Positions 32,302 through 48,887 of a stretch of DNA of 64,000 nucleotides are shown here, piece after piece (the stretch's first letter is position 1; each line of letters opens with the position of its first letter). Location: positions 182,937 to 246,936 of the forward strand of contig CAYJVR010000002.1 in assembly GCA_964373715.1 (NCBI GenBank), given 5' to 3'. Both the position numbers and the translations under genes were made by a program. This stretch comes from an uncultured Planctomycetia bacterium (lineage in GTDB: Bacteria > Omnitrophota > Gorgyraeia > 1-14-0-20-64-10). Below the pieces are notes generated by a model. The model ran no database searches, had not been told where the DNA came from, and worked only from the letters and a program-made list of their open reading frames with translations.

Positions 32302-32853
32302 ATGGCAAAACGCAAAGGGCTCGTCATCGTTTATACCGGCGACGGGAAAGGGAAAACCTCTGCCGCTTTGGGGGCCGCGATGCGGGCGCTGGGCCACGGC
32401 TGGAAAGTTCTCATCATCCAGTTTTTCAAGGGGGACTGGCCGGTCGTTTACGGCGAGCTGGAACTGGCCAAGAGGCTCTATCCCCAGATCGAAGTCCTGC
32501 AGCTGGGCAAAGGGTTCGTCAAGATCATGGGGGATAAAAAGCCGTTTCAGGAGCATGTCCAGGCGGCTGAGACAGCCCTCACAATCACCCGAGAGAAAAT
32601 GCTCTCCGGCCAGTACGACCTGATCATCTTGGATGAGGTGATCTACGCGTTAGGCTACATGGACTTCAAGCTGATCGAACTGGCCGACGTGCTGCAGCTG
32701 ATCAAGGAGAAACCCCCGCTGACCCACCTGATCCTCACCGGGCGCAACGCGCCGAAAGAGCTTATCGAGGCGGCTGATCTGGTGACGGAGATGAGGGAGA
32801 TCAAGCACCCGATGGCTAAAGGAATCCCCGCCCAGCAAGGCGTAGATTTCTAG
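32302..32853 (+). CDS. cobO: Cob(I)yrinic acid a,c-diamide / cob(I)alamin adenosyltransferase (CobO/BtuR family)
   Basis: KGLVIVYTGDGKGKTSAALGAAMRALGHGWKVLIIQFFKG P-loop, and the DEVIYALGYMDFKLIELADVLQLIKEKPPLTHLILTGRNAPKELIEAADLVTEM core. Confidence 0.8.
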   Translation: MAKRKGLVIVYTGDGKGKTSAALGAAMRALGHGWKVLIIQFFKGDWPVVYGELELAKRLYPQIEVLQLGKGFVKIMGDKKPFQEHVQAAETALTITREKMLSGQYDLIILDEVIYALGYMDFKLIELADVLQLIKEKPPLTHLILTGRNAPKELIEAADLVTEMREIKHPMAKGIPAQQGVDF

Positions 32854-32978
32854 AAGCTATCTCACAAATACCGTTCGCCCTTCGACAATCTCAGCACGAA
32901 CGTCCCAGCTATTTATGAGACGGGTTCTAATACGTCATTCGCTTTTATATTGAATATTAGTATTAAATATGATACATT

Positions 32979-33497
32979 TTGTATATGCTTCCATTTGGAG
33001 AAACCGTTTTATTATGGCGTTCTGAACGCCGGATGTCCCAAGAGACGTTGGCTCAGCGCGCCTACATCTCGCGCCCGAATCTTTCCGCGATTGAGAAAGG
33101 GAAGAGGGAGGTTTCATTAAAGACACTCCGCTCTCTTGCAGTTGCTTTGGAAGTGTCGCCCGGCATTTTGGTGGATGGAGTGGGTCCATGGTTTAAAGAC
33201 CCTAAGCCGCTCTCTAGGGAGGTCTTTGAGAGAGTTGCGGAAGCCGTCGTGAATAATGGACCGGTTTCTTCGGACCGTGAGATTCAGCTGGTTGATTTGT
33301 TAAGGTTGATTTCTAGAACTCAGCTTATGATGGCTCGAAACGCTTCCAAAAGCTCTTACCTTGTCGGTAAGAAACGAGTCCAGGCGGCTTGGTTGAAGCT
33401 TTCCTCCGCGTATTCCCCCGAAGACATCCAAAGCTTTATTCGTCGAATAATGGAGCGCAAAAACGAGCAGCCCATTGAGTCCTCAAAAGGTCGATAG
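32979..33497 (+). CDS. XRE-family helix-turn-helix protein (candidate antitoxin/regulator) with a C-terminal extension
   Basis: MSQETLAQRAYISRPNLSAIEKGKREVSLKTLRSLAVALEVSPGIL is a Cro/C1-type HTH. The gene sits in a low-GC (about 47%) islet behind an AT-rich promoter region and overlaps the downstream gene by 23 nt. Confidence 0.7.
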   Translation: MYMLPFGETVLLWRSERRMSQETLAQRAYISRPNLSAIEKGKREVSLKTLRSLAVALEVSPGILVDGVGPWFKDPKPLSREVFERVAEAVVNNGPVSSDREIQLVDLLRLISRTQLMMARNASKSSYLVGKKRVQAAWLKLSSAYSPEDIQSFIRRIMERKNEQPIESSKGR

Positions 33498-34095
33498 GTT
33501 TTTCAGGGTATTGGAAAAACATATCCATGAACCGGTCAGGATTATTTTGACGGGCGCTGCAGCGGGAGCTTTGATGGGGCATGTTCGGCCCAGTTTGGAT
33601 GTCGATTTCGCCATTCAACCGGTTCGCGGTGATTCGAAGAGATGGACCCATATTGAGGAAGCCATCCAGCGCACCCGGCAACTGACGGGAATATCGGCAC
33701 AGTATGCCCAGGATATCGATCGGTGGGGGGCTATTTCATTGATGGATTATCAAAGGCATACTCGTCCTTATCGTAAATTCGGGAAAATCGAAGTTCGGCT
33801 TTTAGATCCTCTTTATTGGTCTATCGGGAAAATCACTCGTTATCTGGAACCGGACATTCAAGACTTAATAGCTGTTTTTAAAAATCAAAACACCCCTATT
33901 GATCTTGTTGCGAAAATATGGGGTAAGGCTTTAAAAAGCAGCCCTCCTTCCGATGCTTGTTTTAGATTTAGGCAGCATGTGGAGAACTTCCTTAAAATAT
34001 ACGGAACTCGGATATGGGGTAAGCGGTTTGATTTTGACGCAGCGATGGAGAAATTCAGAAAAGCAGCGGGGATTGTGAGGAAACCCACGGCGTAG
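33475..34095 (+). CDS. Minimal nucleotidyltransferase of the AbiEii/AbiGii-like toxin type
   Basis: ILTGAAAGALMGHVRPSLDVDFAI fits the Pol-beta-superfamily hG[GS]x9-13DhD motif. It also resembles the AbiEii N-terminus (KGGTAL...R.S.DIDF). 206 aa. Translationally coupled to the upstream HTH gene. Confidence 0.55.
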   Translation: MSPQKVDRFFRVLEKHIHEPVRIILTGAAAGALMGHVRPSLDVDFAIQPVRGDSKRWTHIEEAIQRTRQLTGISAQYAQDIDRWGAISLMDYQRHTRPYRKFGKIEVRLLDPLYWSIGKITRYLEPDIQDLIAVFKNQNTPIDLVAKIWGKALKSSPPSDACFRFRQHVENFLKIYGTRIWGKRFDFDAAMEKFRKAAGIVRKPTA

Positions 34096-34098
34096 GGT

Positions 34099-34488
34099 TT
34101 ACTTCTTGCCGGTGAGCATTTGGTGGACGGTGTCCAACAACTCATCCATCCGTCCGGGCTTCTCGAAGTAGCGGTCCGATTTTTGCTCGAATGTCGGTAT
34201 CTCTCCCACGATGTCCGGTTTGGCGGTCAACAGCATCACCGGGATCATCTTGGTGATCGGGTCGTCCCTGAGAGTTTTAAAGACTTGAGTTCCGGGGATG
34301 TCCGGCAGCACGATGTCGAGGATGATAAGCGCGGGCCACTCCGATTTGGCTTTCTGGAGCACCTCGCCTCCGCGGCTGAGCTCGATCACTTCGTAGCCCT
34401 TGGCCCGGAGCATGCGGGACAGACCTATGCGGGCGTCCGCTTCGTCATCCACCACAAGTATCTTCAACTGGGGCGTTCCCATACTCAC
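34099..34488 (-). CDS. Single-domain response regulator receiver
   Basis: KILVVDDEADARIGLSRMLRAKGYEVIEL...ALIILDIVLPDIPGTQVFKTLR...IPVMLLTAKPD receiver signature. Confidence 0.8.
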   Translation of the reverse strand: MSMGTPQLKILVVDDEADARIGLSRMLRAKGYEVIELSRGGEVLQKAKSEWPALIILDIVLPDIPGTQVFKTLRDDPITKMIPVMLLTAKPDIVGEIPTFEQKSDRYFEKPGRMDELLDTVHQMLTGKK

Positions 34489-34526
34489 CTCTCGCGGTTA
34501 AAGTTTCGGATTTTCTCGGCGAATTA

Positions 34527-34610
34527 TGCCGAGGGAGAGAATCGAACTCTCATGAGGTTTCCCCCACGGGTTTTTGAGACCCGCGCGTCTGCCAGTTTCG
34601 CCACCTCGGC
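34527..34610 (-). tRNA. tRNA-Leu (anticodon CAA), type II with a long variable arm, no encoded CCA
   Basis: The minus strand reads GCCGAGGTGGCGAAACTGGCAGACGCGCGGGTCTCAAAAACCCGTGGGGGAAACCTCATGAGAGTTCGATTCTCTCCCTCGGCA. The acceptor GCCGAGG/CCTCGGC pairs. The anticodon stem is CGGGT/ACCCG with loop CTCAAAA. The T-arm is GAGAG-TTCGATT-CTCTC. Confidence 0.8.
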
Positions 34611-34659
34611 GAGTTGGATTTCCAAAGAACCGGCTGTCAGACCGGATTATGAGAAAAAG

Positions 34660-34680
34660 TGGTGGAGCTGAGGGGGATCG
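34660..34680 (-). repeat. 21-bp direct duplicate of the tRNA-Ala 3' end (T-loop to CCA). It has att-site character.
   Basis: tggtggagctgagggggatcg occurs at 34660..34680 and again at 34781..34801 (the real tRNA 3' end). The flanks diverge at once, and the 120 bp between the copies do not fold into a tRNA. Confidence 0.5.
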
Positions 34681-34780
34681 GCGCCTTTCAGGTCGGCCAC
34701 TCGCCCCGCATATCTGATGCTCCGTTTGTCGCATCTGCGGGGCTCTCTTCGATCCCCTTCGGTAATGTATGTAAAAGACC

Positions 34781-34856
34781 TGGTGGAGCTGAGGGGGATC
34801 GAACCCCTGGCCTCCTGCATGCCATGCAGGCGCTCTCCCAGCTGAGCTACAGCCCC
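34781..34856 (-). tRNA. tRNA-Ala (anticodon GGC) with encoded CCA
   Basis: The minus strand reads GGGGCTGTAGCTCAGCTGGGAGAGCGCCTGCATGGCATGCAGGAGGCCAGGGGTTCGATCCCCCTCAGCTCCACCA. The Ala identity pair G3:U70 is present. Anticodon loop ATGGCAT. T-loop TTCGATC. Confidence 0.85.
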
Positions 34857-34919
34857 GCTTAGACCCTTCAGTCTAAGGGGCGACCATCTCGTTGTCAACA
34901 TTTCAGGGGGCGTGCTAGA

Positions 34920-37451
34920 ATGCCTATTCCGACGATGAGTTACTCCTTTAACGAGTGTGAACCCAAATGGCAGCGCCGCTGGAAGGAGGCGGGGTCTTTT
35001 AAGGCCGTCCCTCATTCCACCCCTCTCCCTGGGGGAGAGGGAAAGGGTGAGGGGAAAAAGTATTACCTGCTTGAAATGTTCCCATACCCCTCCGGCCGGA
35101 TCCACATGGGGCACGTGCGCAACTACACGATCGGAGATATCCTCGCCCGCTACCGGCTCGCGCAGGGGTTCAGGGTGCTCCACCCGATGGGGTTTGACGC
35201 GTTTGGTCAGCCGGCCGAGAATGCCGCGATCAAAAGAGGGGTGGACCCCGTCGCTTGGACACTCGACTGCATCGGGCAGATGCAGGCCGGGTTAAAGCGG
35301 CTTGGTTTTTCTTACGACTGGGACCGGGAGGTGTCCACCTGCAGCGCCGACTATTACCGCTGGAACCAGTGGATTTTCCTGAAAATGTTTGAAAAGGGGC
35401 TGGCCTACCGGGCGGGCGCGCCAGTCAACTGGTGTCCCAGCTGTCAGACGACGCTGGCGAATGAGGAGGTCGTGCAGGAGGGGTGCTGGCGCTGCGGCAC
35501 CGCCGTCGAGAAGAAGGAGCTGGAGCAGTGGTACCTGAAGATCACCGCCTACGCGCCGGAGCTGCTCGATGACCTCTCGAAATTGATCCACTGGCCTGAC
35601 CGGGTTCTCACGATGCAGAGAAACTGGATCGGCAGGAGCGAGGGGACGCAGATCCGTTTCATGCTCCAGGACAGCGCCAAGACATTCGACGTCTTCACTA
35701 CGAGGCCTGACACGATCTTCGGCGCGACCTACGTGGTGCTGGCCCCCGAACATCCGCTGGTTTCGGAGCTGATCCAGGGGAAGCCTCAGGAAAAACAGGT
35801 TCGCGTGTTTATCGGAAAGGTTTCCCGCCAGTCGAAGCAGGACCGGGTCGCCGAAGGGGTCAAAAAAGAGGGGATATTCACCGGGGCTTTCGCGGTCAAC
35901 CCGGTGAACGGGGAGTCGGTCCCGGTTTGGGTGGCCGATTACGTCCTGTTCGAATACGGCACCGGCGCGGTGATGGCGGTGCCGACGCACGACCAGAGGG
36001 ATTTTCTCTTTGCGCGGGAGCATAATCTGCCGATGCGCGTCGTGATTTCCCCTCCCGATGGGAAAACGGACCCGGACGGCTGGAAAGAGGCTTATGAGGG
36101 GGAAGGCAAACAGGTCAACTCCGGCCAGTTTGACGGGATGCCCAATGCCGAAGGGAAGAAAAAGATTGCGCTCTGGATGGAGGAAAAGGGGTGGGCGAAA
36201 AGGACCGTCCAATGGCGGCTCCGGGATTGGTTGATTTCCAGGCAGCGCTACTGGGGCACGCCGATCCCGGTGATTTACTGCGGTGCGTGCGGCGTTGTTC
36301 CGGTGCTGGAGGATCAACTGCCGGTCATTCTTCCGGAGAAGATCGAGATCACTGGCACCGGCGGGTCACCGCTGGCCAAGGTGAAGGAATTCGTCGAGAC
36401 CGCCTGCCCGAAATGCCGGAAACCGGCGAGGCGGGAGACCGACACGATGGCGACCTTCATCGACTCCTCCTGGTATTTCCTCCGGTTCTGCTCGCCCGGC
36501 GAGCAAAAACTGCCGTTTGACTCCGCCGCGGCGGATTTCTGGATGCCGGTGGATCAGTACATCGGCGGCATTGAGCACGCGATCCTCCATCTGCTCTACT
36601 CCCGGTTTTTCACCAAATTCCTCCGGGACCTCGGGCTCTTAAAACTGGAGGAGCCGTTCTCCCGTTTGCTGACGCAGGGGATGGTGCTGAAGGACGGCGA
36701 AGTGATGTCAAAATCCAAGGGAAACGTGGTGGACCCCGATGGTGTGATCGCCAAATACGGGGCCGACGCATTAAGAGTATTCATCCTGTTCGCCGCCCCT
36801 CCCGAAGACCAGCTGGAATGGAACGACAGCGCGATCGAAGGGATCTGGCGGTTTTTGAACAGGGTATGGGATCTTGCGGAGCGGTTTAGCGTTCAAAGTT
36901 TAAAGTTCAAAGAAGAAGAGAGTGAATCAAAAGATTCGGGTCCTGAACATGAAACGTTAAACCTTAAACTTGAAACTGAACTTAAGCGGAAAGTCCACGC
37001 CGCGATCAAACGGGTGACCGAGGATATCGAATTGTTCAAGTTCAACACGGCGATCAGCGGCTTGATGGAACTGAGGAACGGGATGGAAAAGGGATTGAGC
37101 GGCTGTTCGCCAGCGGCTGCCCGGGAGGCGGTCGAAGCGCTCATCCGGCTGCTCAATCCGTTCGCTCCGCACATGACTGAAGAGCTTTGGGAGATGCTCG
37201 GCCACAAAGAGATGCTGGCCGCCGGCCCCTGGCCTGCTTATGATGCCGGCCTGTTGACCGAGAGCGAAGTGACAATCGTCGTGCAGGTCAACGGCAAGGT
37301 CCGTTCCCGCATCACCGTGCCTGTAAACATGGAAAAAGAGCAGCTCAAGAGCCTTATTTTAGCCGATCCTGCGCTTAAAAAGTGGATTGACGGCAATACC
37401 GCAAAAGAGTGGGTGATTGTCCCCAACCGGGTCGTCAACATCGTTGTTTAA
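34920..37451 (+). CDS. leuS: Leucyl-tRNA synthetase
   Basis: [55 protein letters not shown] (HIGH region). The KMSKS motif is VMSKSKGN. The match runs the full length of 843 aa. Confidence 0.9.
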
Positions 37452-45374: not shown

Positions 45375-45734
45375 ATGAAGCTAAAATTCTTCCTCAGGGG
45401 CCGCTTGGACAGCCTATTTACCCGGCAGGAACAGCTGGCGCTGGGTTTTGTTTTAGCGGTTGGGTTTTTCGGTTTGCTGTTGGGCGCTTCGGAATCCCGC
45501 CGGCTGAAGGAGTTCCTGCCGCCGGAGAGAGCGGTCCGCCTCTCTGTGCGGGTGAATTCGGCTTTGGCGGAAGAGCTGGCGGCGCTGCCGGGAATCGGTC
45601 CTGTGCTGGCGGGCCGGATCGTTAAAGAGAGGCAGATCCGGGGGGCGTTCCTTACGCTGCGCGATCTGGCGAGGGTCAAAGGGATGTCGTCGAAGGTTCT
45701 CTCGAGGATCGAGGGGCTCGTTCGCTTCGATTGA
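45375..45734 (+). CDS. comEA: Competence protein ComEA (helix-hairpin-helix DNA-binding)
   Basis: N-terminal TM segment. The C-terminal VNSALAEELAALPGIGPVLAGRIVKERQIRGAFLTLRDLARVKGMSSKVLSRIEGL is the classic ComEA HhH signature. Confidence 0.75.
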   Translation: MKLKFFLRGRLDSLFTRQEQLALGFVLAVGFFGLLLGASESRRLKEFLPPERAVRLSVRVNSALAEELAALPGIGPVLAGRIVKERQIRGAFLTLRDLARVKGMSSKVLSRIEGLVRFD

Positions 45735-47179
45735 CCTCCATGCGGGCCCCTCTTGCGGCTGCGGCGGCCTCTTTCGCCGCGGGGATTCTCTGCGGTTGGT
45801 GGCTGCATCTTCCGTTGTTTGCAGTTCTGTTCTCTTCGGGGGTTGTCTTCTTGTTTGCCGTCCGGCCGGGGAGACGGCGCTCGCTGTTCCTGCTGATTCT
45901 TTTCACCTTGCTAGGGGCGGGCAGGGCTGCTCTCGATGAAGAGTTTTCCAGGAGTGCCGTCTTCCGGTTTTTGACCGAAGAGGCCAGGCCGGTGACATGC
46001 GAAGGGGTTATTGTCAGCGGTATTTCTTCCGGCCGTCCGGCGGGAAAATTTCTCAGCCGCCGCGGACGGCTGCGCATTATTTCTCTGTCGGGGCCGGCGG
46101 GGACCGTTCCTGTCTCGGGAGTCCTGCTCGTCCATCTGCCGGGAGTGGGCCCTCCCCTGGAGTATGGCGACCGGGTTCTTTTAACGGGGATGGTTCGCCG
46201 GCCACGCACTCTTTCCTCAAAAGGGTTTCGGGAGGCCGACTGGTTCTGGTCGGAGGGTCTTTCCGGCCTCTTGAATATTTCCGATCCTGCCGCTGTCCGC
46301 CGTCTCAGTACCGAGCCCGGGGTATGGGTCCGGTACTGCCGCCTGATCGGCGCCTGGCGGGCGGCACTCAAGGCTCGGGGGCGGCTTTTGATGGAAACCG
46401 GTGACGCGGTTTATCTGGAGGCTCTTTTGCTTGGCGAAGCGGGCGGAATCCCCAGGAGGGATTGGGATCTGTTCCGCGCCACCGGAACGGTCCATATCCT
46501 CGTGGTCAGCGGATTGCACGTCAGCCTTATCGCTTTTCTGATTTTGGTTCTCGCTTCTCTTTTTCGTGTTTCGCGCATGGTGAGGTTTCTTATGATGGTT
46601 TTCGGGTTGGTGGTCTACTGTACATTGACCGGCAGCGAGCCCTCCATTCTGCGCGCCACCCTCATGGGGCTGCTCACCTGTCTTGGGGCGATTTTTGGCT
46701 CCGGAGCGTTTGCTCTCAACGGGCTCGGGTTGTCAGGGTTTTTGATTCTGTGGGCCGATCCGAGGGCGTTGGCAAGCGTCAGCTTTCAGCTCTCTTTTTC
46801 GGCCGTGTTGGGTTTGTTGGTGATCGCCCCGTGGTTTGAAAAGAAGGCCTACGGTTTTCTCTTGGGGGAGGGGAAGCCGGGAGTTTTTTGGGAGGTTTTC
46901 TTAAAGGGATTGTCCGCTTCGGTGGCGGCGTGGGCCGCCACCGCGCCGTTGATTTTCTGGCATTTCAAAATGGTTTCTCCGGTCGCAGTTGCCGCCAATA
47001 TGGTTCTTGTCCCTTGGTCCACGGTGCTGATTTTTATCGGATGTGCAGTCTACCTTTTCGGCTCCGTAAGTTTAATCATTGCAGCCCCATTCGCAGCGGT
47101 GTTTTCATTAAATATTAAAAATTTTATTGTTTTAACGATTTTAATACAAAAGGTATTTAAGGCAGTTTTTGGTGTATAA
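45731..47179 (+). CDS. comEC: DNA internalisation competence protein ComEC/Rec2, membrane core only, lacking the C-terminal metallo-beta-lactamase domain
   Basis: DUF4131-like N-terminus plus the competence domain (...DWDLFRATGTVHILVVSGLHVSLIAFLIL...). It has multiple TM helices. The last ~25 codons lie in about 25%-GC DNA. Confidence 0.7.
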   Translation: MTSMRAPLAAAAASFAAGILCGWWLHLPLFAVLFSSGVVFLFAVRPGRRRSLFLLILFTLLGAGRAALDEEFSRSAVFRFLTEEARPVTCEGVIVSGISSGRPAGKFLSRRGRLRIISLSGPAGTVPVSGVLLVHLPGVGPPLEYGDRVLLTGMVRRPRTLSSKGFREADWFWSEGLSGLLNISDPAAVRRLSTEPGVWVRYCRLIGAWRAALKARGRLLMETGDAVYLEALLLGEAGGIPRRDWDLFRATGTVHILVVSGLHVSLIAFLILVLASLFRVSRMVRFLMMVFGLVVYCTLTGSEPSILRATLMGLLTCLGAIFGSGAFALNGLGLSGFLILWADPRALASVSFQLSFSAVLGLLVIAPWFEKKAYGFLLGEGKPGVFWEVFLKGLSASVAAWAATAPLIFWHFKMVSPVAVAANMVLVPWSTVLIFIGCAVYLFGSVSLIIAAPFAAVFSLNIKNFIVLTILIQKVFKAVFGV

Positions 47180-47405
47180 AATTATTAGTTTTAAAGTATT
47201 GATTTAATTAACTAAATATGGTATATATTTCTTTAGGAATAAAACCGGTCTCTAGAAAAGGACAATAATACCCTCCAATCTTGGTAGGGGATACCCCTTT
47301 GCGGGCTTGGAATATAAAAACCTTGTAATGAGTCCTATTCTGGAGTATAAAGGAGTGCAAGACACTCCGTGTGTTTTGCAGTCTACGGCAGAGTGAAAGG
47401 AGTAG

Positions 47406-47825
47406 ATGCTCGCGATGGGGGCCTCAGTAGGCACATCCAAGCCTCTCGTTGAGCGGCGCCGGTATAGGCGACTGAACTCCCATGCTCCAGTTCAATTCCG
47501 TAACGTTTTAAAACCTCAAGAGCTATTCGACGGAACCCTTTCCAAAGATATAAGCGCTGGCGGTCTTTGCATGACCACCGAAAATTTTATTTCCCCGGAA
47601 TCAAGGCTTGTTCTTCTGGTCTCCCTTCCCGGAACTTTAAAATCGATTCGGCTCATCTGTCAGGTGACCTGGACTCAGCAGCAGCGATTTGCCGATGGCT
47701 ATGAATGCGGGGTTGAGTTTATCGAAATCAACCCGGAGGACCGCCAGGAGATAGATTCTTTCGTCCAACGCGCTCGAGAGGTCTCTTCGGCCACCTACAC
47801 GCAGTCCAAGCGCCTGTCCGCGTAG
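47406..47825 (+). CDS. Stand-alone PilZ-domain c-di-GMP receptor
   Basis: RRRYRR (RxxxR) followed by DISAGG (DxSxxG), then a beta-barrel-type C-terminal region. AAAGGAG RBS. Confidence 0.6.
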   Translation: MLAMGASVGTSKPLVERRRYRRLNSHAPVQFRNVLKPQELFDGTLSKDISAGGLCMTTENFISPESRLVLLVSLPGTLKSIRLICQVTWTQQQRFADGYECGVEFIEINPEDRQEIDSFVQRAREVSSATYTQSKRLSA

Positions 47826-47924
47826 TTTTCTGTTTTATCCGCCGGCTCTCTCCAAGAATGGTTTACGATTTCTCCACCCTGTGGTATCGTGAATAAACCA
47901 ACCAAGACGTTTAGGTGAACTCCA

Positions 47925-48887
47925 ATGAAAATCCGGACTCTTATATCCTTCGTGCTTTTTACGGCACTCGTTGTTCCTGAAGCCAACGCAGCCTGGGTGT
48001 GGACGCCCCAGAGCCGCCGGTGGGTGAATCCGAAATATGCCGCTAAAGACAGCCCCCAAGCCCAGATGGAATGGGCTCAGGGATTTTTTGAGCAAAAGGA
48101 TTATCCTCGGGCGGCGAAAGAGTATCTGCGCCTTGTTCAGGCCTATTCGAGGTCGGAGTTGGCGCCTGAAGCCCAGTACCTGGCCGGGCTTTCGTACGAA
48201 TTGGCCGATAATCCGGAGGAAGCCTTCGGCGCCTACAAAAAACTGGTCGAAATCTATCCGTTCAGCAAGCGGTTTAAAGATGCGATTGAAAGGGAATTCT
48301 TCATCGCGGAGAGCCTGCGCGGCGGCAAGCGATTGAAGTTGGTCGGCCCGGTCAGCTTGCCGTCTCTCGATAAAGCGGTTGAAATCTACCAGCATATTTT
48401 GGAGCAGGCCCCTTACAGCGATTACGGCGATAAAGCGCAGTTCCAGCTGGGGGAATGTTATATCCTCCAGAAACGTTTTGAGGAAGCCAACCGCACTTTC
48501 CAGAGGATGCTGACCGATTATCCGGCCTCTGCGCTCGTGGATGAGGCCAAATACCGGGTCGCCTTCTGCGCCCGGCAGCTTTCCTTGAAGCCGAGCTACG
48601 ACCAGTCGGCGACCGATGAGGCGATTGAATGGTATGAAGAGTTCATCAAGAGCCATCCCGAAAGTTCCCTGCTTTCGCAGGCCCAGGAATCCCTCCGGCA
48701 GTTGAAGGGATTCAAGGCCCAGGGCCTGGCCAAAGTCGCGCAATTTTATGAGAAGCAGCATAAGCCGGCCAGCGCGGCGATCTATTACCGGCAGATTGTC
48801 GAGAATTATCCGGACAGTTCGGAGGCGGCCGAGGCCGCCGGCAGGCTTACCGAATTTGAGCGGGAAGGGATTGTTAAAAAGCAGTAG
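47925..48887 (+). CDS. Secreted TPR-repeat protein (BamD/YfiO-like family)
   Basis: Signal peptide MKIRTLISFVLFTALVVPEANA (a signal peptidase I site with no lipobox cysteine). The TPR-like repeats resemble those of the outer-membrane assembly factor. The missing Cys argues against a canonical BamD. Confidence 0.45.
   Translation: MKIRTLISFVLFTALVVPEANAAWVWTPQSRRWVNPKYAAKDSPQAQMEWAQGFFEQKDYPRAAKEYLRLVQAYSRSELAPEAQYLAGLSYELADNPEEAFGAYKKLVEIYPFSKRFKDAIEREFFIAESLRGGKRLKLVGPVSLPSLDKAVEIYQHILEQAPYSDYGDKAQFQLGECYILQKRFEEANRTFQRMLTDYPASALVDEAKYRVAFCARQLSLKPSYDQSATDEAIEWYEEFIKSHPESSLLSQAQESLRQLKGFKAQGLAKVAQFYEKQHKPASAAIYYRQIVENYPDSSEAAEAAGRLTEFEREGIVKKQ

Follow-up and report, generated by a model that had tools for sequence, protein, structure and literature searches.

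Between cobO and a minus-strand receiver-domain gene of an uncultured Planctomycetia bacterium (assembly GCA_964373715.1, placed by GTDB in Omnitrophota), a low-GC islet carries 2 overlapping genes, A and B, which we interpret, with moderate confidence, as a self-contained, autorepressed toxin-antitoxin (TA)-type module of the MenAT/AbiE kind with an XRE-type antitoxin. The islet lies in a stretch of 64,000 nucleotides (nt) of contig CAYJVR010000002.1 (positions 182,937 to 246,936), referred to here as the window, and all coordinates below are those of the window. Gene A encodes an XRE-family helix-turn-helix (HTH) protein, the predicted antitoxin and autorepressor, whereas gene B encodes a minimal nucleotidyltransferase (NTase), the predicted toxin. 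A preliminary description, prepared from the letters of the window without database searches, had proposed an undescribed TA or abortive-infection module at this position. That proposal is essentially upheld by the conservation of the pair, the NTase homology of B and the absence of an XRE partner for such NTases from the literature searched. The features of the module, given in amino acids (aa), base pairs (bp) and nt and with the evidence in brackets, are the following.

32854 to 34098, + strand: low-GC islet carrying the whole module (GC content; empty site in relatives)
32950 to 32955, + strand: -35 hexamer TTGAAT (at the position of a conserved TTGACA, ending 4 nt before the palindrome, in the alignment of 61 loci)
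32959 to 32976, + strand: putative operator palindrome AGTATTAAATATGATACA (family consensus TGTAGTA-N4-TACTACA, 18 bp)
32973 to 32978, + strand: -10 hexamer TACATT, built from the right operator arm (geometry conserved across loci)
32985 to 33497, + strand: gene A, 170-aa XRE-family HTH protein, predicted antitoxin and autorepressor (HTH_3 match, AlphaFold2 [AF2] model, homologues)
33475 to 34095, + strand: gene B, 206-aa minimal Pol-beta-fold NTase, DUF6036/MenT1-like, predicted toxin (AF2 model, hhalign, homologues)
33553 to 33606, + strand: NTase motif I of gene B, G27-x14-D42-V-D44, within RPS40LDVD, the codon of S40 being 33592 to 33594 (invariance)
33829 to 33864, + strand: putative C-terminal catalytic motif of gene B, K119-x2-R122-x4-D127-x2-D130 (GKITRYLEPDIQD) (invariance)

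The gene pair across genomes

A scan with gene B of 1 genome per GTDB species yielded 67 loci, all in metagenome-assembled genomes (MAGs), 3 of them cut by a contig end. In all loci with enough upstream DNA (64/64), an A homologue aligning over both domains is located directly 5' of B. The loci come from Omnitrophota, Elusimicrobiota, Nitrospirota/Thermodesulfovibrionia, Planctomycetota, Myxococcota/Polyangia, Binatia, FCPU426 and Proteobacteria. Consistently, 3 B homologues on long contigs are preceded by the same HTH gene, with overlapping stop and start, in wholly different flanks, and all 3 look-ups made in the opposite direction, from A homologues, show a gene of 201 to 214 aa without a Pfam domain that overlaps the end of A. 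Overlapping reading frames were seen in 58 of 62 loci, the commonest overlap being 4 nt (29 loci), and the pairwise identities of A and B are correlated (r = 0.77). The 2 genes had been regarded as a coupled pair from the outset, and both their co-occurrence across genomes and their conservation in unrelated flanks agree with this. Judged from its sequence, the pair has the layout generic to TA operons, namely, 2 small co-oriented genes in variable contexts, an overlap and an operator in the promoter.

Identity to the window protein is approximately 45% to 59% and is similar across different phyla, and 2 A/B copies reside on different contigs of a single Thermodesulfovibrionia MAG, CAMYNN01 (loci L031 and L042); both observations fit horizontal spread. 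A search for a third conserved gene beside the pair returned shadow open reading frames (ORFs) and a cluster of receiver-domain proteins, and no such gene. The receiver-domain cluster adjoins the pair in about 5 of 68 loci, roughly the frequency expected by chance for so common a domain. The receiver gene of the window is native, because it is present at the syntenic empty sites described below, and receiver genes beside the pair are probably a matter of chance. Elsewhere, receiver-domain genes were seen next to the pair in loci L033 (3027 to 3488), L054 (4618 to 4857), L066 (2727 to 3281 and 4943 to 5323) and L072 (1956 to 2399). In a single lineage, a ParE/PhdYeFM TA pair lies approximately 2 kb downstream of A/B (loci L001 to L003, 8431 to 9001), the sole hint of TA clustering in the contexts examined.

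The two encoded proteins

Gene A matches the Pfam model HTH_3 over residues 16 to 63 (E 2.9e-11, above the gathering score), as well as HTH_31 and HTH_26, which are of the Cro/C1 type, and more weakly HipB- and HigA-type NCBIfam models. Approximately 100 further residues follow the HTH, and the Cro/C1 (XRE) assignment and the C-terminal extension given in the preliminary description are both confirmed. The ORF lister places the start of the gene at TTG 32979; we take ATG 32985 as the real start because it keeps a constant spacing to the operator and yields the 170-aa protein also given by the public gene call. In the AF2 model (predicted local distance difference test [pLDDT] 88), a five-helix HTH (residues ~4 to 65) is followed by 4 long helices (residues ~78 to 161). 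The HTH superposes on C.AhdI, C.BclI, SinR, DdrO and 434 Cro at 0.5 to 1.5 Å, and whole-chain fold matches are to Stl, DdrO and ComR, while structure comparison gave no specific relative for the C-terminal domain of ~95 residues and 4 helices. We found 113 homologues of A, nearly all of 148 to 187 aa and a few of them shorter fragments; those of full length cover more than 85% of A in the alignment and share the C-terminal domain, in which R78, E82, R83, E99 and R154 are conserved. No His is conserved in this domain across the family and the window protein has none there. The possibility of a HEPN-like RNase was thus rejected, there being neither a conserved His nor an Rx4-6H motif.

Gene B starts at TTG 33475 and, with this start, overlaps gene A by 23 nt, as had been described. 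The N-terminus, MSPQKVDRFF, aligns residue by residue with the family consensus MxPRQIDRFF, and TTG 33475 is therefore the correct start. Public gene calls are shorter (182 aa from 33547 in GCA_947085675.1; 173 aa in a Logan assembly), and starts later than TTG 33475 would cut the first helix and strand or the glycine motif. This is the sole TTG start among the loci examined, the homologues starting with ATG (58) or GTG (4). The AF2 model (pLDDT 94) consists of an alpha/beta NTase core and a five-helix C-terminal lobe. Gene B carries ILTGAAAGALMGHVRPSLDVDFAI, the stretch quoted in the preliminary description, and its segment L-T-G27-A28-x13-D42-V-D44-F fits the Pol-beta motif I, hG[GS]x9-13Dh[DE]h, with Ala in place of the second G/S; distant relatives have GG. 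The downstream K119-x2-R122-x4-D127-x2-D130 matches the C-terminal motif of the DUF6036 type and may correspond to K137/D152 of MenT1 or K189/D211 of MenT3. Across 42 family members, G27, R38, S40, D42, D44, D80, R83, W84, K119, R122, D127 and D130 are invariant, and K119, D127 and D130 stay so once DUF6036-like distant members are added, whereas the position of S40, always Ser in the 42 members, has Thr as the consensus in the DUF6036-like clade. With its motifs intact and an NTase core in the model, gene B is the minimal Pol-beta-type NTase that had been claimed, and apparently an active one, of the DUF6036/MenT/AbiEii branch.

The closer affiliation of B comes from profile comparisons. The 392 homologues of B, of ~200 aa and 50% to 60% identity, were named "hypothetical protein" in every source name shown, and none of the 120 listed has a Pfam domain. 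Searched with the family profile, 1.84 billion cluster representatives yielded only 228 proteins, with relatives at E 1e-15 to 1e-8 among them, and the family is therefore small. DUF6036 is the Pfam match of most of the weaker full-length proteins retrieved. Scanning of 25 distant relatives recovered DUF6036 in 19 (best E 5.8e-16), AbiEii in 9 (best E 6.9e-5) and DUF2204 in 5. Consistently, hhalign aligned the close family of B with the DUF6036-positive clade (PF19502; proteins of ~175 to 220 aa) over its full length, with 99.9% probability and an E-value of 5.8e-33 over 176 columns, and the 2 share the motifs GG/GA..R.[ST].D.D, DI.RWG and K..R....D..D. The DUF6036 hidden Markov model (HMM) itself reaches neither B nor any of the 120 closest relatives listed. 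Judged by these comparisons, B belongs to a divergent sister clade that the current DUF6036 model does not reach.

Comparison of the gene B model with PDB structures by Foldseek gave MenT1 (8an5_B, 8an4_B) and the putative NTase TM1012 as top matches, followed by FAM46, TdT and MNT; the AbiEi structure 6y8q was a low-probability match (0.18) to the B model and did not match A. In PDB sequences, phmmer and the close-family profile returned only chance matches (a bleomycin-resistance protein, SnoK), which we discarded, and a broader profile returned an NTase-like protein (5uvd), MenT1, JHP933 and AbiGII at E 0.025 to 0.21, all through the motif I region, in which RPS40LD42VD44 of B aligns with RFT39RD41VD of MenT1. 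Against viral structures (BFVD), Foldseek found nothing significant. Of the HMMs to which the preliminary description had pointed, the XRE type (HTH_3) matched A, while DUF1814/AbiEii reached distant relatives of B alone. The AbiEii-like assignment of B consequently stands as remote homology (DUF6036 clade at 99.9%, AbiEii more weakly, MenT1 as top fold match) but not as membership, since both the PF08843 and the DUF6036 HMMs miss B. "MenT1/DUF6036-like" is a better fit than "AbiEii-like".

Predicted promoter and operator, and chromosomal setting

The 131-nt spacer 5' of gene A has a GC content of 35.9%, in line with the AT-rich region described before the pair. When the 130 nt 5' of gene A were compared across loci, a palindrome emerged. 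Allowing up to 4 mismatches, 61 of 63 evaluable loci carry it, the window among them, and in 43 of these it starts 26 nt ahead of the ATG of A. A strict version of the pattern occurs in 45/63 loci versus 7/6138 background windows of 80 nt, and the best perfect inverted repeat 5' of A, nearly always ~26 nt before the ATG, has a mean length of 8.0 bp versus 5.1 bp in shuffled sequences. Anchored on the palindrome, the consensus of 61 loci reads aTTGacaaAA, then TGTAGTAaATATGCTACA, then TTttg..tATG. In the window, the -35 and -10 hexamers are separated by 17 nt and the -10 hexamer and the ATG by 6 nt, and transcription is predicted to start at or beside the A of ATG 32985, yielding a leaderless mRNA, as known for lambda cI expressed from PRM. 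Bound to the palindrome as a dimer, A would occlude the -10 element, and the comparative evidence for autorepression by A is therefore strong. The window operator has 1 mismatch in the core of the left arm (AGTAT for TGTAT) and, with 4 mismatches to the consensus, falls in the highest mismatch class. A generic repeat finder reported no inverted repeat 5' of A in the window, the left arm being mismatched, and a TTTATA/TATGAT promoter from a consensus scan was dropped in favour of TTGAAT-17-TACATT, the arrangement kept across 61 loci.

The islet (32855 to 34098) has a GC content of 46.7%, compared with 57.4% for the window (standard deviation 3.3% for 1244-nt windows), and only 0.14% of windows of that size are as low. 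GC at third codon positions (GC3) is 0.53 in gene A and 0.45 in gene B, versus 0.72 to 0.78 in accA, cobO, the receiver gene and leuS. On the left, the islet adjoins cobO (32302 to 32853, + strand; CobA_CobO_BtuR, E 5.6e-62), and on the right a single-domain receiver gene (34099 to 34488, - strand; Response_reg, E 7.3e-20) that is convergent with cobO. To compare the site with that of relatives, CobO was used to scan metagenome contigs for the syntenic region. The closest relatives were L085, L092 and L088 (83%, 80% and 74% CobO identity, respectively). L085, the longest contig, has the order accA-cobO-receiver(-)-tRNA-Leu-tRNA-Ala-leuS, and the short contigs L088 and L092 each show whatever part of this order they span. 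In all 3, the gap between cobO and the receiver gene is approximately 5 to 25 nt and contains neither A nor B. Thus, the module is a 1245-nt insertion between 2 convergent 3' ends. No direct repeats at the islet edges and no integrase were found. The low-GC islet of the preliminary description is fully borne out, as is the foreign origin it suspected, on low GC and GC3 and on the empty site in relatives: the islet is horizontally acquired foreign DNA.

The preliminary description had further placed the islet beside tRNA-Leu, tRNA-Ala and a duplicated tRNA 3' end, as a defence-island and integration-hotspot context. The tRNA elements are real: tRNA-Leu(CAA) occupies 34527 to 34610 and tRNA-Ala(GGC) 34781 to 34856, both on the minus strand, and an exact 21-nt copy of the tRNA-Ala 3' end (34781 to 34801) lies at 34660 to 34680. 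An Rfam scan of 32500 to 35000 detected these 2 tRNAs and nothing else. However, the repeat does not bound the islet, which the native receiver gene (34099 to 34488) separates from the tRNAs. The 2 tRNAs are 170 nt apart in the window (34611 to 34780) versus 7 nt in L085 (1295 to 1303), and the extra DNA contains the 21-nt duplicate; it resembles a scar left at tRNA-Ala by an integration and excision event unrelated to the islet. Because the duplicate is a separate scar, the tRNA context of the module is incidental. The hotspot interpretation is not supported: the islet is surrounded by housekeeping genes (accA, cobO, the receiver gene, the 2 tRNAs and leuS), it is inserted where the 3' ends of cobO and the receiver gene face each other, and the duplicate is a separate indel. 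The sole other stretch of the window with a GC content as low as that of the islet (approximately 46500 to 48350) spans the C-terminal part of a 482-aa membrane-protein ORF (45731 to 47179), a 139-aa ORF (47406 to 47825) and the start of a 320-aa ORF (47925 to 48887).

Proposed mechanism, alternatives and known systems

In the mechanism that we propose, a dimer of A would bind the 18-bp palindrome filling the promoter spacer and the -10 element and thereby autorepress a leaderless bicistronic mRNA, the overlapping reading frames would couple translation of B to that of A, and the four-helix C-terminal domain of A would neutralise B. Loss or titration of A would free B to elongate the 3'-CCA ends of tRNAs with NTPs, blocking aminoacylation and translation. 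Action on tRNA 3' ends is proposed because of the analogy with MenT1, MenT3 and MenT4; MenT toxins extend tRNA 3' ends (PMC7450476, PMC10435456). B might be neutralised by sequestration, by antitoxin-induced autophosphorylation of Ser40, or both. The unrelated antitoxins MenA1 and MenA3 neutralise their toxins by inducing autophosphorylation of a Ser or Thr 2 residues before the catalytic Asp, and in MenT1, T39 is autophosphorylated on antitoxin binding, while nucleotide binding and activity depend on D41 and K137 (PMC11375011). AbiEi likewise induces autophosphorylation of its toxin (2026 preprint, bioRxiv 10.64898/2026.01.19.700257). The phospho-acceptor position is invariant in B as S40, which makes this route plausible for A. 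From the MenT analogy, we infer that B would be toxic and neutralised by A, with tRNA as the target of B and Ser40 as the phosphorylated residue, and the module may serve in phage defence or DNA stabilisation.

Several observations weigh against this interpretation. Gene B has no meaningful match to Pfam (E <= 1), NCBIfam or PADLOC HMMs; its fold matches, although all to NTases, are weak (Foldseek E 0.018, TM-score 0.39 to 0.43), as is its hmmsearch match in PDB sequences (E 0.03); and, to our knowledge, DUF6036 is a family without a tested function. That the C-terminal domain of A neutralises B is proposed by analogy, and the weak TTG start may mean that the toxin is poorly expressed in this genome. 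No defence genes were found among the neighbours of the islet, and no relatives of B were found on plasmids, phages or viral contigs.

Three other explanations have to be set against a TA-type module. The pair could be a repressor-controlled cassette for a non-toxic enzyme, B being a small-molecule or RNA-repair NTase (for example, of the aminoglycoside- or lincosamide-modifying kind) and A a ligand-sensing regulator, which we regard as unlikely. Resistance enzymes do occur among minimal NTases with a helical C-domain, a distant relative of B has a weak Aminoglyc_resit match (E 0.0068), and C-terminal sensor domains are frequent in XRE regulators, among them Stl, DdrO and ComR, the whole-chain fold matches of A. 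Yet the 4-nt overlaps, the 64/64 pairing, the patchy spread across phyla, the variable flanks and the solitary low-GC insertion form the signature of an addiction module, the nearest fold match of B is a toxin, and RxSxDxD with a phospho-acceptor Ser is typical of the MenT/AbiEii lineage. Somewhat less probable still is a reversal of roles, in which B modifies a protein, NMPylating or phosphorylating A or a host protein as MntA does HepT in type VII systems, and would be the regulator or antitoxin-like partner, with A as an effector acting through transcription. Here, the absence of a conserved His, and hence of a HEPN Rx4-6H motif, from the C-terminal domain of A stands against the facts that this domain is a helical bundle of unknown function and that type VII MNT-HEPN systems neutralise with a minimal NTase. 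MNT antitoxin structures (8xeo_B, 1wot) are indeed among the fold matches of B, but these matches span only the core of ~80 residues, and both the gene order, HTH then enzyme, and the K..R..D..D motif match those of DUF6036/DUF1814 toxins.

The least probable of the 3, in our judgement, is that the pair is decaying and no longer functions in this genome, a thought prompted by the TTG start of B, where 58 of 62 homologues have ATG, and by the operator, with its mismatched left arm and its 4 departures from the consensus. Against this, neither ORF is truncated, all family-invariant residues are retained in the window protein, the promoter hexamers and the distance between them are undisturbed, and the same sequence is present on several independent assemblies.

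Read as a TA-type module, A/B can be compared with 2 kinds of NTase systems. MenAT1 of Mycobacterium tuberculosis (Rv0078B/Rv0078A) likewise consists of 2 genes with the antitoxin gene upstream, and MenT1, like B, is a small NTase (~190 to 200 aa) with an N-terminal Pol-beta core and a helical C-lobe, although the 2 proteins are only marginally related in sequence (hmmsearch E 0.03; identity of 13% across the fold alignment). The genomic region that holds MenT1 is atypical and is thought to have been acquired horizontally (PMC10435456). MenA1 is a 68-aa MazE-related peptide without a DNA-binding domain, and MenAT1 lacks transcriptional autoregulation (PMC7450476, PMC11375011); by contrast, A is a 170-aa XRE repressor with a conserved operator. 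In AbiE and in MenAT3 and MenAT4 (COG5340-DUF1814), the antitoxin is bifunctional, with an N-terminal autorepressing DNA-binding domain and a C-terminal neutralising domain, an organisation to which A can be likened. The toxins of these widespread and mobile modules resemble B in being NTases with motif I, and they have a C-terminal Lys/Asp motif to which that of B may correspond. The differences are that AbiEi and MenA3 carry the COG5340 winged HTH whereas A has a Cro/C1-type XRE HTH, that AbiEii and MenT3 are of ~290 aa versus 206 aa for B, and that the PF08843 (AbiEii/DUF1814) HMM and the PADLOC models miss B. Thus, A/B would work like MenAT and AbiE, yet it falls outside Pfam-defined AbiEii and the current DUF6036 model.

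The HTH of A is shared with type II XRE antitoxins of the HigA, HipB and MqsA kinds and with the controller (C) proteins of restriction-modification systems, which bind palindromic operators overlapping their own promoters, as predicted for A. We know of no antitoxin or C protein of these kinds that partners an NTase toxin, and the four-helix C-terminal domain of A has no recognisable relative. The partners known for DUF1814 toxins are COG5340/AbiEi winged-HTH proteins, COG4861 proteins and the MazE-like MenA1 (PMC7450476, PMC3632139), and an XRE partner for DUF6036, DUF1814 or AbiEii NTases is not described in the literature searched. In the 2 DUF6036-positive relatives of B with a readable 5' neighbour, P0256 (partner at 2670 to 3017 of L078) and P0253 (partner at 407 to 820 of L170), B is matched by a protein whose overlapping 5' partner, of 115 or 137 aa, lacks a Pfam domain; the 2 partners are related to each other (BLASTP E 1e-6) and not to A. 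A third relative, P0222, has no called upstream gene, and a fourth contig was too short to show one. The observations point to a general organisation of DUF6036 proteins as two-gene modules whose partners have been swapped. Partner swapping seems to be the rule in this NTase superfamily, A/B being one more combination. We also considered that the C-terminal domain of A might be the ancestral DUF6036 partner with a fused HTH, and rejected this, as hhalign of the A family against the 115- and 137-aa partners gave a probability below 1%.

The MenT/AbiEii kind of NTase toxin makes up a major class of TA and abortive-infection systems, with 3 unrelated antitoxin families known, and A/B would add a fourth type of partner, an XRE repressor fused to a new helical domain. 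The pair thus extends an established principle rather than revealing a new one. A broader version of this reading is possible but doubtful, namely, that the whole DUF6036 branch is a large family of MenT-like toxins with repeated antitoxin exchange and that the XRE protein represents a fourth, structurally unrelated class of MenA-type antitoxins, its four-helix domain inducing autophosphorylation of Ser40. If true, the model in which any binding partner can trigger NTase autophosphorylation would reach a repressor-fused antitoxin, in phyla without cultured members. The clade of B is missed by Pfam, NCBIfam and PADLOC, and current TA and defence annotation pipelines are accordingly blind to A/B. 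The conserved operator and predicted leaderless promoter make the regulation of the pair directly testable, and the module provides a functional lead both for DUF6036 and for a pair that recurs in MAGs of Omnitrophota, Elusimicrobiota, Nitrospirota, Planctomycetota and Myxococcota.

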